Source: Gammaproteobacteria bacterium | GTDB lineage: Bacteria; Pseudomonadota; Gammaproteobacteria; DASZBR01 | DNA length: 64,000 bases | Reading direction: 5' to 3' | NCBI GenBank assembly: GCA_033763845.1 | Contig: JANRJR010000016.1 | Coordinates: 7,568 to 71,567 of the forward strand | Shown: positions 18,966 to 24,499 of the stretch, in pieces | Layout: each line of letters opens with the position of its first letter | How positions within the stretch are numbered: the first letter of the stretch is position 1 | The notes under the pieces: generated by a model | What the model was told of the DNA's origin: nothing | Databases searched by the model: none | What the model saw: only the letters and a program-made list of their open reading frames with translations | Program-made: the position numbers and the translations under genes

Positions 18966-21446
18966 ATGAAACGGTGGATTTTCCTAGGTTTTTTCTTACT
19001 TTGGCCAACATTATTGTTTGCTCAAAGCTCTCTCAGCTTAACACCTCCAGATTCAGATTTATCTGTAATTTATTTAAGCAACATGTTTGGTGTTGTGGAT
19101 GGAGTGTTATTTGGAACAGGTAGTCAATTATTAGGCGAACTGTTTGGTATTTTTAATGGCGCTGTTTTAATTCTTGGCGGAATTGTCGTTATTTATACAT
19201 TTTTTATTGGAACACTAAAGACAGCACATGAAGGTGAAGTACTTGGAAGAGAATGGTCATCTATTTTTATTCCACTTCGTGTTGTTTTTGGAATCACTTT
19301 ATTGATTCCTAAAAAAACAGGTTATTCATTTATTCAAATATTCATGATGTGGGTTATCATTCAGGGCGTAGGTCTCGCAGATAGCGTATGGAATGCTGCA
19401 CTTAAATATTTATATTCCGGTGGAATTATTATTTCACAAAATTATTCTAGCTCAGGTGGAAAAGTTTCCAACTATCCGATGATCGCACTTTCTGCAAAAT
19501 TATTGCGCTCACTCACTTGCGTAGAAATGCTTCGCTCTGAATTAATTCGTTATCGTACGTTTCAAATTCAAAAAGGTCTTCCTGCTATCGATCCTGTCCC
19601 TGATTTTGGCGGAGATATTTTAAATGCCATTAATTCTCCAACTGCTGTCACGTTATCAAATGGAAAAAATCGGGTTAATTTCCCTACAAGTAATTATTAC
19701 AACACAAACGGTGTATGTGGCTCTGCGTCATGGCAAGATGTGTGGACAAATCTTCCTGCTCAACTTGCCAATAACCAACAATTTTTAGCAACATGGCAAG
19801 GTGATAAAACTCGTTCGACGGCAGTAAGCCAAGCTGTTACGGCGTTACTTCCTGCTGCAAAAAGTATTGCCAACAATTACATTAATCGCTCTATTGATCC
19901 AAAAACCGCCACTCCACTGGGTTTAATGATTGGAAAAAAATGGACGGGGCCAAATAACGGTCCGTTTTTGATCAAGGGATCTATCTTGGGTGATTCCGCC
20001 TCAGCTTATTACGGAACCATGGCCGCCACCATGAGACTAATATCTCAATCCGCAAACAGCGCGGCCTATTCCAGCACGTGGATTCAAGAAGCTGAAAAGA
20101 AAGGCTGGGCATTAGCTGGCGCGTATTATTTCAATATCGTCAACGCAAACGCACAAGTTTCAGACATCACCGACGGAAATATTCCTGATATAACAGAAGC
20201 ACCGTTTGATATTACACTTGAAGATAAAATCACAAGCATTCTTGGCGGCAAATCGAGTATGTATGTAATTCAAATGCAAACATTACTGAATGGAAATAAC
20301 ACATCTACGAGCAGCAGTGCCCCGCCCAATAACTATATTGTTTCTATTTCTTCACCGTTCATAGCTGGCGCTGTAAAATATGCTTCCGGCCTTAGCTACG
20401 GTAGTACTGCCCTTTCAAACCCCCAAGCTGCGCAAGCCACTGCACCTGCGGCGGGTGTTTCTAATGGGATTGGTGGATTTCTATCCGGCCTTGCGAATTC
20501 ACAAAGTACAAATGCAAATCCAGTTATTGAGATCGCAAAATTTGGGAATTCACTCGTTATAGGTGGATTTATTGCTATCTTGCTTTTATCTATTATTGGT
20601 TTCGCCGCAACAATCGGGTTAGGTGCCATTCCGTTTTGTAGCGTCGGTGCCGCTGGTGTTTCAATTGTCACCGCGATGACAAGCATGTTTACACCCATCT
20701 TCGTCACACTTATCGCTGTTGGTTTAACGATGTCTTACTACATTCCGATGATCCCGTTTATCATTTTCAGTTTCGGTGTCGTTGGTTGGTTCATTTCTGT
20801 TGTCGAAGCCATGTTAGCTGCTCCAATTGTTGCTCTGGGTGTTTCTCATCCTGAAGGTTCTCACGCCGTTTTAGGAAAAGCGGATCCTGCCGTGGGACTT
20901 ATGGTCAGCGTCTTTTTAAGACCTACGTTTATGATATTTGGTCTTCTGTTTGGCATGATGGTGTCATATGTCGGTTTATGGTTATTAAATCAAGGTTTTG
21001 GTGAAGCATTCAACGAAGCCACTCAACAAGTCGGTGGCGGAATATTTAAACCCATCATTAGTATCATTATTTACGTCATGATTGTGATGCAAATCGTACA
21101 GAAAAGTTTCAGCTTAATTCACATTATTCCTGATCAAACATTGCGCTGGATTGGTATCAATGTCCAAGGCATGGGCGGAGAAGCCGAAGCTGAACAAGCC
21201 ATCGGTGGAAGCGCTAAAGCTGGTATGGGCAAGCTTGCAAAATCAGCGGGCAGCAAAGTCGGTGCAAGCACCGGAGCTGGAAAAGGCGCTGGCGGCGTAG
21301 CCAAAGGTCAAAAAGAAAAAGAAGGGAAAGGAGACGATAAACCCAATTCACTACAAAGTGATGCGAGTAAAGGCGGTGGTGATACTCCGAGCGTTGGTGC
21401 AGGTAATGATGCAGGTGGTGGTGGTGCAGGCGGAGGTGCTGCTTAA
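18966..21446 (+). CDS. dotA: DotA/TraY-like polytopic membrane protein, paralog 1 (T4BSS)
   Basis: About 826 aa from MKRWIFLG. Signal peptide, then periplasmic segment, TM pair, large periplasmic domain, C-terminal cluster of about 6 TM helices. Conserved LRWI..V.GMGGEAEAEQAI near the end. Gly/Ala/Lys-rich basic C-terminal tail. Paralog of 21908..24499. Confidence 0.55.
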   Translation: MKRWIFLGFFLLWPTLLFAQSSLSLTPPDSDLSVIYLSNMFGVVDGVLFGTGSQLLGELFGIFNGAVLILGGIVVIYTFFIGTLKTAHEGEVLGREWSSIFIPLRVVFGITLLIPKKTGYSFIQIFMMWVIIQGVGLADSVWNAALKYLYSGGIIISQNYSSSGGKVSNYPMIALSAKLLRSLTCVEMLRSELIRYRTFQIQKGLPAIDPVPDFGGDILNAINSPTAVTLSNGKNRVNFPTSNYYNTNGVCGSASWQDVWTNLPAQLANNQQFLATWQGDKTRSTAVSQAVTALLPAAKSIANNYINRSIDPKTATPLGLMIGKKWTGPNNGPFLIKGSILGDSASAYYGTMAATMRLISQSANSAAYSSTWIQEAEKKGWALAGAYYFNIVNANAQVSDITDGNIPDITEAPFDITLEDKITSILGGKSSMYVIQMQTLLNGNNTSTSSSAPPNNYIVSISSPFIAGAVKYASGLSYGSTALSNPQAAQATAPAAGVSNGIGGFLSGLANSQSTNANPVIEIAKFGNSLVIGGFIAILLLSIIGFAATIGLGAIPFCSVGAAGVSIVTAMTSMFTPIFVTLIAVGLTMSYYIPMIPFIIFSFGVVGWFISVVEAMLAAPIVALGVSHPEGSHAVLGKADPAVGLMVSVFLRPTFMIFGLLFGMMVSYVGLWLLNQGFGEAFNEATQQVGGGIFKPIISIIIYVMIVMQIVQKSFSLIHIIPDQTLRWIGINVQGMGGEAEAEQAIGGSAKAGMGKLAKSAGSKVGASTGAGKGAGGVAKGQKEKEGKGDDKPNSLQSDASKGGGDTPSVGAGNDAGGGGAGGGAA

Positions 21447-24499: not shown

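Follow-up and report, generated by a model that had tools for sequence, protein, structure and literature searches.

The DNA stretch analyzed here (64,000 nucleotides of contig JANRJR010000016.1 from the Gammaproteobacteria bacterium assembly GCA_033763845.1, hereafter the window) carries region I of a Dot/Icm secretion system, in which two dotA genes, named dotA1 and dotA2, lie on either side of icmV. The two open reading frames (ORFs), of 826 and 863 aa, are intact and were found exactly where an original prediction, made from the DNA letters alone, had placed a tandem of DotA paralogs with oppositely charged tails. As that prediction had also proposed, dotA1 sits in the divergent region between icmW and icmV, 103 bp from icmW, and dotA2 is translationally coupled to icmV by a 4-nt overlap of stop and start codons (ATGA), which can be read directly in the sequence and is likewise present in the orthologs and in the single-copy outgroups. 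Both copies lie beside icmV, icmW, icmX, dotB, dotC and dotD (Table 1), and Pfam recognizes IcmW, DotB (T2SSE), DotC (T4SS_TraI) and DotD in the window.

Table 1. Positions, in the window, of the genes and elements of Dot/Icm region I and of the other features described in the text (RBS, ribosome-binding site; TM, transmembrane).
Feature	Position	Strand	Remarks
icmX-like gene (363 aa)	16834..17925	-	weak NCBIfam IcmX_IVB match to the last 140 aa (E 6e-11, under the cut-off)
small ORF (150 aa)	17956..18408	-	between icmX and icmW; N-terminal signal-like sequence, secreted-looking
icmW	18401..18862	-	PF23130, 180 bits; NF038222, 169.7 bits; divergent from dotA1
icmW-dotA1 spacer	18863..18965		103 bp; compact divergent control region
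predicted promoter facing icmW	18918 to 18891	-	TTGACA-16-TATAAT
predicted extended -10-like element	18923-18931	+	TGTTACAAT (TGnTACAnT)
dotA1 (826 aa from the conserved MKRW start)	18966..21446	+	NF033886, 546 bits; extra copy upstream of icmV
DotA1 signal peptide	aa 1-19
DotA1 TM1/TM2 region	to ~aa 150
DotA1 extended periplasmic domain	~aa 151-520
DotA1 hydrophobic helices	~aa 520-730
DotA1 tail	aa 747-826 (nt 21204-21443)	+	disordered, basic
dotA1-icmV spacer	21447..21479	+	33 nt; RBS GGGAGA at 21465-21470
icmV (143 aa)	21480..21911	+	NCBIfam NF038219, 112.9 bits (cut-off 100); single copy
dotA2 (863 aa)	21908..24499	+	NF033886, 532 bits; ancestral position after icmV
DotA2 tail	aa 742-863 (nt 24131-24496)	+	disordered, acidic, Ser/Thr/Gly/Ala-rich; rest of architecture as DotA1
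Sel1-repeat protein gene	24514..25149	+	PF08238, 4 repeats; 3' of dotA2
dotB	25162-26334	-	TIGR02524, 645.7 bits; single copy
dotC	26301-27122	-	PF16932, 261 bits; single copy
dotD	27128-27643	-	NF033882, 164.5 bits; single copy
second paralog pair, first gene	31047-31631	+
second paralog pair, second gene	31641-32267	+	weak sub-threshold Dynamin_M match
giant ORF (3552 aa)	34885-45543	-	PF00071, aa 51-150; PF00617, aa 544-678
dnaA-dnaN-recF-gyrB	52556-58508	-

The assignment of both proteins to DotA was supported by profile, sequence and structure comparisons. The original prediction had named a profile search placing them outside the DotA/TraY family as the result that would count against it; both scored above the cut-off (500 bits) of the NCBIfam DotA equivalog NF033886, DotA1 with 546.2 and DotA2 with 532.5 bits, and both also matched the DotA/TraY subfamily model TIGR04346 (383 and 380 bits). 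The corresponding NCBI entries, MDX2164151.1 and MDX2164153.1, are annotated as DotA by the Prokaryotic Genome Annotation Pipeline. A phmmer comparison of DotA1 with the DotA chain of the DotA-IcmX protochannel solved in situ from Legionella pneumophila (PDB 9ngy/9nh0) gave an E-value of 2e-100 in four stretches spanning the protein. AlphaFold2 models were built from 42-sequence alignments, with a predicted local distance difference test score of 72 for DotA1 and 73 for DotA2; the order of helices and strands was identical in the two paralogs and the tails were disordered. When these models were searched against the PDB with Foldseek, the DotA of 9ngy (9ngy_FP1) was the sole significant match (E 2.9e-24 for DotA1 and 1.6e-24 for DotA2), with a global template modeling score of 0.32–0.36, which is low because a monomer model was compared with an in-situ conformation.

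Both proteins showed the VirB6-like architecture of a signal peptide, two N-terminal transmembrane helices, a large extended domain and five C-terminal hydrophobic helices, and both contain the Cys pair (C185/C251 and C190/C252) that does not vary among 42 homologs. The signal peptides, MKRWIFLGFFLLWPTLLFAQS and MKRWLFLGLLLLWPTILFAQS, are nearly identical, as had been noticed at the outset, and both end in LFA followed by QS, which is consistent with the 19-residue cleaved leader of Legionella pneumophila DotA (PMC6761968). Neither copy matched Pfam at an E-value of 0.01 or better, PF11388 included. Among the homologs found, PF11388 marks only long DotAs (at least 938 aa), which include all matches named Legionella or Legionellaceae except P0032, and the shorter non-Legionella DotAs, those of Rickettsiella among them, also lack it; its absence reflects the reach of the Pfam model and not non-membership in DotA. 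A TraY of IncI-type conjugation was ruled out, since the DotA equivalog is passed and the neighboring IcmV matches the TraX model only at an E-value of 4e-4. No conjugation genes were found among the window ORFs scanned or recognized, and the locus lies on the chromosome at a distance of about 34 kb from dnaA. One chromosomal Dot/Icm region I holds both genes, each of them a genuine and intact dotA.

The two proteins are 58% identical over 819 aa (BLASTP, E = 0), and this identity is unevenly distributed. The expected value of about 75% over the N-terminal 250 aa held for aa 1–150 (74–78%) and not for aa 151–250, where it falls to 54–61%. The predicted divergence of the central periplasmic domain was borne out, with 40–56% identity over aa 251–550, and so was the conservation of the C-terminal transmembrane cluster, where identity rises again to 66–80% over aa 551–750 and the motifs IGLGAIPFCSVGAAGVSIVT and HPEGS..LGKADPAVGLM were found in both copies. 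Between the tails, defined as all residues after the conserved motif GMGGEAEAEQAI, identity is below 31%.

The proposed contrast between a basic and an acidic tail was confirmed as opposite in sign and modest in size. The DotA1 tail of the window has 80 aa (G 32, A 17 and K 13%), a net charge of +4 and an isoelectric point (pI) of 9.6; that of DotA2 has 122 aa (S 20, A 18, G 16 and T 12%), a net charge of -6 and a pI of 4.6. Most of the clade to which the window belongs (described below) shows the same contrast. There, the DotA1 tails are 44–80 aa long, Gly/Ala/Ser/Lys-rich and basic in all seven genomes (net +2 to +6, pI 9.2–10.7), and the DotA2 tails are 109–152 aa long, Gly/Ser/Ala/Thr-rich and acidic in five of the six complete sequences (net -2 to -7, pI 4.5–5.0). 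The tails of all four single-copy outgroups are of low complexity and 73–103 aa long (net -1 to +3, pI 5.0–9.5), and the contrast has therefore evolved after the duplication. Since the cleaved leader is followed by two transmembrane helices, the periplasmic extended domain and another five helices, the tail is expected on the cytoplasmic side, where it reportedly lies in L. pneumophila DotA. Additionally, the DotA2 tails of two clade members (L005:8001-10673 and L001:11027-13681) close, within the last ~35 aa, with 9–11 uninterrupted collagen-like G-X-Y triplets, for example GDKGDKGEVGPQGHKGDTGAQGNKGND, which are missing from the DotA2 of the window.

In a protein search, the close homologs of the two window DotAs came in pairs on shared contigs, and six further, independent assemblies (L001–L007) from Logan, JGI and NCBI show the same dotA1-icmV-dotA2 layout. 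These are Logan SRR29564155, JGI 3300020641, JGI 3300056701 (with dotA2 cut by the contig end), Logan SRR32818497 (where the contig end is reached and DotA2 aligns over nearly its full length), GCA_964559315.1 (an "uncultured Coxiellaceae bacterium") and GCA_035943935.1; the DotA2 protein of Logan SRR12377062 is identical to that of GCA_035943935.1 and so represents the same lineage. The shared order is icmX, small ORF, icmW; dotA, icmV, dotA, Sel1; dotB, dotC, dotD, flanked by parB-parA-gidB and ftsY. In the next-closest genomes, the DotA is 38–47% identical to the window copies and a single icmV-dotA stands at the same syntenic site; such outgroups at the parB-parA-gidB...dotBCD locus are L008, L009, L010 and L043. 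Since the outgroups keep a single icmV-dotA, dotA1 is the added copy and dotA2 holds the ancestral, icmV-coupled position.

In a neighbor-joining tree of 100 DotA sequences, the 14 copies from seven genomes formed one clade with a bootstrap of 100, and on 651 ungapped columns the DotA1 and the DotA2 orthogroups contained the same six genomes, each with 98–100% support. The branch lengths are symmetric and every copy is ~46–52% identical to L008, so that DotA1 and DotA2 evolve at similar rates and are equally distant from the outgroups. The seventh genome, GCA_035943935.1 (L006/L007/L012), has the dotA-icmV-dotA layout, and its flanking genes place it inside the clade in a tree read without node supports. 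Its two tails are both basic, that of DotA2 with a His run, and its behavior in the tree, taken up below, could be due to gene conversion, faster evolution or recombination.

These comparisons also bear on whether the pair could be a collapsed or chimeric repeat, or a foreign TraY brought in by a conjugative element inserted beside icmV. The original prediction had asked for related genomes to be checked for an assembly artifact, and the recurrence of the same layout in independent assemblies shows that it is not one. Beyond the derivation of the window from a metagenome-assembled genome (MAG), nothing speaks for such an origin, and it can practically be dismissed: seven independent assemblies have the layout, mis-joined repeats are impossible at 58% identity between the copies, both proteins pass the DotA equivalog, beyond the level of the TraY subfamily, both branch inside the DotA clade of the host lineage with a bootstrap of 100, and no conjugation genes were found nearby among the window ORFs scanned or recognized.

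Selection was estimated by the method of Nei and Gojobori as the ratio of nonsynonymous to synonymous substitution rates (dN/dS) between the window and L005, the relative closest to it and the only one to give a usable ortholog pair. The ratio was 0.059 for DotA1 and 0.059 for DotA2, and in all regions of the two genes dN remained well under dS. The diversifying selection that the original prediction had proposed to look for in the periplasmic domain left no sign in these pairwise estimates, in which the extended domain had a dN/dS of 0.06–0.07 with dS saturated. Between DotA1 and DotA2 the synonymous sites are saturated or undefined, which makes the paralog dN/dS uninformative and argues that no recent gene conversion has taken place in the window genome. 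Both copies are kept by strong purifying selection in a clade of uncultured Coxiellaceae-like bacteria, and neither is decaying. That the second copy merely raises the DotA supply, or is a neutral duplicate heading to loss, is very improbable on these grounds. Tandem icmV-dotA duplications do arise often, one copy of a Legionellales locus described below (L056) is frameshifted, and few differences are fixed between the two orthogroups. However, the pair persists across six to seven genomes whose IcmX has diverged to 51–76% identity, the copies differ by 40% with a conserved tail contrast, and both are intact with a dN/dS of ~0.06 each, where a neutral duplicate would have decayed.

The spacer between icmW and dotA1 contains a perfect -35/-10 consensus on the minus strand, facing icmW (12/12 matches), overlapped on the plus strand by an extended -10-like element ~35 nt before the dotA1 ATG (Table 1). 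The core of the spacer, AGTATAGTCTATAGTAAAAAATTGTCAAAGCATGnTACAnT, is kept in 7/7 clade genomes, and these elements are predicted promoters. A generic scan for promoters and terminators returned the same counts as in shuffled sequence, and only the conserved perfect minus-strand consensus stood out. The core of ~40 bp (window 18891-18931; L001–L006) is almost invariant, with back-to-back promoter-like elements, and the flanking spacer varies; part of it (AGTATAGTAAA...TGTCAA) is recognizable in the outgroups L009 and L043. A PmrA-type box (TTAAT-N6-TTAAT) was seen by eye upstream of icmV in L004 and was rejected, as two matches occur in the window where 1.07 would be expected, neither of them near dotA.

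Downstream of dotA1, no terminator-like hairpin was found in the dotA1-icmV spacer, which ranges from 22 to 153 nt among the orthologs, and a GGGAGAAA-type ribosome-binding site before icmV is conserved in them. Because the gap in the window is of 33 nt with a ribosome-binding site and without a terminator, and because of the ATGA overlap, dotA1-icmV-dotA2 is probably one operon from which both proteins would be co-produced. Such an arrangement could also serve an obligate hetero-oligomer, in which DotA1 and DotA2 would enter one mixed protochannel in a fixed ratio and their opposite tails would pair. The adjacent and probably co-transcribed genes with no terminator-like site between them, the 66–80% identity of the membrane and pentamerization helices, the complementary tail charge in 5/6 genomes, the equal evolutionary rate of the copies and the precedent of the DotI/DotJ paralog heterocomplex (PMC8896642, PMC11338181) are in agreement with it. 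The solved DotA ring, by contrast, is a C5 homopentamer, which fits poorly with a 1:1 pair; both L006 tails are basic, and in a Legionella MAG described below (L069) the two copies are 98.9% identical save for their tails, so that a pair can persist without interface co-adaptation. An obligate mixed channel is therefore considered unlikely.

The original prediction had stated that known Dot/Icm systems carry a single dotA. A DotA-alignment scan with one genome per GTDB species yielded 78 Legionellales loci, which were screened by tblastn of DotA1, DotA2, IcmV and IcmW plus ORF extraction, with multi-copy loci defined as at least two dotA within 6 kb. Ten of the 78 carried two or three copies, including that of the cultured Legionella massiliensis LegA, and the statement does not hold; the two to three whole Dot/Icm cassettes of Piscirickettsia salmonis contradict it as well (PMC5671498). 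Two of the ten represent the window clade. The others are L017, with two copies 56% identical; L039 (Legionellales MAG ERP117304_co1_75, L039:318-8256), with three copies 66–79% identical in the order icmV-dotA, dotA, icmV-dotA; L051, L056 and L060, which share one duplication, with one L056 copy frameshifted; L054, whose two copies adjoin each other with no intervening icmV, together with a further copy on L049 from the same MAG, 35–41% identical; L069 (Legionella sp. MAG binchicken_co266_183, L069:3897-10638), with two DotAs 98.9% identical; and L079 (L. massiliensis LegA, L079:5523-12482, with the two icmV-dotA units at about 955.4–961.9 kb of NZ_CCVW01000001.1), with DotAs of 986 and 980 aa, 74% identical, both intact and above 1000 bits on the DotA equivalog. 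The copies tested passed the equivalog cut-off, except the middle copy of L039 (479 vs 500). Within each lineage the copies were mutual closest relatives in the tree (bootstrap 100), which means at least seven independent origins. In the same survey, two records with a Rickettsiella-type icmW-icmV-dotA region, L058 (JBHGAL010000004.1, "Wolbachia endosymbiont of Folsomia candida") and L032 (OY969558.1, "uncultured archaeon"), are probably mis-binned or mislabeled.

The gene order of these loci points to how the window layout may have arisen. The order icmV-dotA-icmV-dotA was found in L079 by blastn and in L056 by tblastn. In L069 the repeat is of 2864 bp with 99.1% identity and starts inside the 3' end of icmV, and ahead of the first copy stands a remnant of icmV with an internal deletion; the icmW, dotA-icmV-dotA arrangement of L069 is the window layout at an earlier stage, after a very recent duplication. 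In the window lineage, a tandem duplication of the icmV-dotA unit followed by the loss of the upstream icmV would have joined dotA1 to the divergent control region that formerly served icmW and icmV, with icmV-dotA2 remaining translationally coupled.

The tails differ in these independent duplicates too. Those of L069 have net charges of -22 (143 aa) and +2 (37 aa) on otherwise near-identical proteins, a difference that rules out an assembly duplicate in this case; those of L. massiliensis have -2 and +2, and inspection of the C-termini showed an acidic extension on one copy in L017 and L039, in the latter on the middle copy only. A long acidic tail on one paralog could mean that the two have split fates, one staying as the resident inner-membrane protochannel and the other being exported toward the host membrane. 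L. pneumophila DotA is secreted in a Dot/Icm-dependent manner after leader cleavage, and its fast evolution and recombination have been read as host exposure (PMC6761968); the activated DotA-IcmX complex spans the envelope (bioRxiv 10.1101/2025.06.23.660953), DotM binds Glu-rich C-termini, which serve as recognition signals of the Dot/Icm system (PMC5802825), and the acidic extension recurs on one copy of independent duplicates (calculated for L069, by inspection for L017 and L039). Against this, both window paralogs share signal peptides, all helices and architecture, the DotA2 tail of the window is only mildly acidic with no clear E-block, and the reading is wholly inferential; it is judged improbable.

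The reading that we favor, and hold to be somewhat likelier right than wrong, is that DotA1 and DotA2 are two functional, specialized isoforms of one machine. The solved L. pneumophila DotA is a VirB6-like pentamer of the inner membrane. It makes up a closed protochannel together with an IcmX pentamer, undergoes a rearrangement upon activation and touches both IcmX and DotG through its extended domain (bioRxiv 10.1101/2025.06.23.660953); this 2025 structure strengthens the view, taken up in the original prediction, that DotA forms the pore. Both window paralogs would occupy the same structural position, with membrane and pentamerization helices kept in both. They diverge in the periplasmic extended domain, where the IcmX and DotG contacts lie in L. 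pneumophila, and most strongly in the disordered tail, which DotA1 has in a short, basic form and DotA2 in a long, acidic one. Protochannels of two flavors might result, either DotA1 pentamers and DotA2 pentamers or mixed rings, differing in how their tails dock cytoplasmic partners, such as the DotL/M/N-IcmSW coupling complex and DotO/DotB, and also in their periplasmic or host-facing surface. What one machine can do would in this way be widened or partitioned. The candidate partners include DotM, which binds Glu-rich signals and peptides (PMC5802825), and the small acidic proteins IcmS and IcmW (PMC8896642).

Several observations weigh against two specialized isoforms. The tails are charged to a modest degree, and in L006 the tail of DotA2 is itself basic (+10). 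The cytoplasmic placing of the tail leans on the topology reported for L. pneumophila DotA, and co-transcription is read from gene spacing and the absence of a terminator-like site. Both DotAs of L006/L007/L012 branch outside the DotA1+DotA2 group with 96–97% bootstrap, and as they do not sort into DotA1 and DotA2, one clean duplication does not account for the history. The dN/dS values are rough, given that dS is saturated (~1.6–1.7), and could hide positive selection at single sites. Finally, only 7 of 748 ungapped columns are fixed differently between the two orthogroups, and these are scattered; the search over these columns gave no domain-specific signal of functional divergence and thus no sharp signature of it outside the tails.

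The window DotAs were also compared with known systems. L. pneumophila DotA (9ngy/9nh0) shares the cleavable leader, TM1/TM2, the extended periplasmic domain, the five hydrophobic helices and a low-complexity Gly/Lys/Ser tail, and its gene has the same neighborhood (icmX-icmW, icmV-dotA ... dotB-dotC-dotD). However, L. pneumophila has one dotA per locus and the window has two with oppositely charged tails; the extended domain of the window proteins is ~150–200 aa shorter and without PF11388, and they have one conserved Cys pair where L. pneumophila DotA has five disulfides. In Legionella, DotA, DotG and IcmX are fast-evolving, recombining parts of the Dot/Icm system, DotA recombining heavily, and a survey of 58 species makes no mention of duplications (PMC6761968).

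The nearest analog is found in the tandem VirB6 paralogs of the Rickettsiales rvh system, where the inner-membrane channel subunit of a host-targeting type IV secretion system is duplicated in bacteria with an obligate or professional intracellular life, with five copies in Rickettsia and four expressed in Anaplasma with huge C-terminal extensions (PMC2653234, PMC7648143). In those arrays, as in the DotA pair, all copies are intact, tandem and divergent, and differ most strongly in their hydrophilic C-terminal extensions. The DotA pair comprises two copies, 58% identical along their length; the rvh VirB6 is of type IVA and DotA of type IVB, with no detectable sequence similarity, and a Foldseek comparison with the VirB6-family TrwI of R388 (7o3v) gave E-values of 0.5–0.8 and probabilities of 0.18–0.33. 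The resemblance is architectural and evolutionary, by analogy, and not one of family membership.

Among Dot/Icm components, the paralogies known from reviews are DotI/DotJ (IcmL/IcmM) and the tandem DotI duplicate of Coxiella burnetii (PMC11338181, PMC8896642). These share with the DotA pair the duplication of an inner-membrane component with both paralogs retained; they differ in protein family, and DotJ has lost a domain whereas both window DotAs are full length. P. salmonis also has more than one dotA per genome (PMC5671498), but there whole 16-gene cassettes stand at separate sites in two to three copies, and in the window only dotA is doubled within one region I. The other Legionellales duplications affect the same gene in the same place with differing tails, and L069 shares the final icmW, dotA-icmV-dotA layout; they are, however, independent events with identities from 98.9% down to 35%, several keep both icmV genes and some have three dotA genes.

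Regarding the neighboring genes, the icmX-like gene is syntenic in every related locus and has no paralog elsewhere in the window. The small ORF between icmX and icmW had no match in Pfam or NCBIfam, and a counterpart of 128–155 aa was found at the same place in all related loci. The position of the Sel1-repeat gene is filled by an ORF of 205–263 aa in the clade members; of the three outgroup loci examined, two (L008 and L009) also have one there. In the closest single-dotA outgroup (L008:15643-18395), type VI secretion genes (VipA, VipB, Hcp and a gp25-like gene) adjoin dotD. Elsewhere in the window, a giant ORF encodes a eukaryote-like Ras GTPase and a RasGEF domain and looks like a large candidate Dot/Icm effector with a small GTPase and its own exchange factor. 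A second tandem paralog pair (29% identity, E 2e-27) matched no family save for the weak hit given in Table 1, and similar-sized ORFs occupy its position in L005 and L006. From the dnaA-dnaN-recF-gyrB region (window 52556-58508 and about 58.6 kb) and a sign change of the GC skew near 58 kb, region I lies ~34 kb from the likely replication origin, beside parAB-gidB.

The protein family is known, as is the theme of channel-subunit duplication in intracellular bacteria. No description of tandem dotA paralogs was found in a targeted literature search, with incomplete journal coverage, or in the main Dot/Icm comparative papers, and no mention of the double dotA of L. massiliensis was found in the literature searched; recurrent, selected DotA paralogy thus appears not to have been described previously. 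A broader and rather unlikely extension of the two-isoform reading is that DotA duplication is a recurrent adaptive route in the Legionellales toward two channel classes, with the tails as docking or gating modules or as an export mark, and a machine with two modes. One tail would then be basic and the other acidic and effector-signal-like, both probably cytoplasmic, the modes would differ in substrate sets, hosts or activation states, and the DotA tail would gain a function, testable in cultured L. massiliensis.

The DotA isoform pairs, retained under selection and re-invented at least seven times, offer natural contrasts for studying gate opening and the role of the tail, since the channel core is kept and the tail and the extended domain, site of the IcmX contacts in L. 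pneumophila, differ. L. massiliensis LegA is cultured, so genetics may be feasible. Moreover, the recurrence of these pairs indicates a core composition of the Dot/Icm system that is more variable than would be expected from the models L. pneumophila, C. burnetii and R. grylli, and the parallel to the proliferation of VirB6 in the Rickettsiales may point to a pressure that acts on the channel subunit and that intracellular bacteria have in common.

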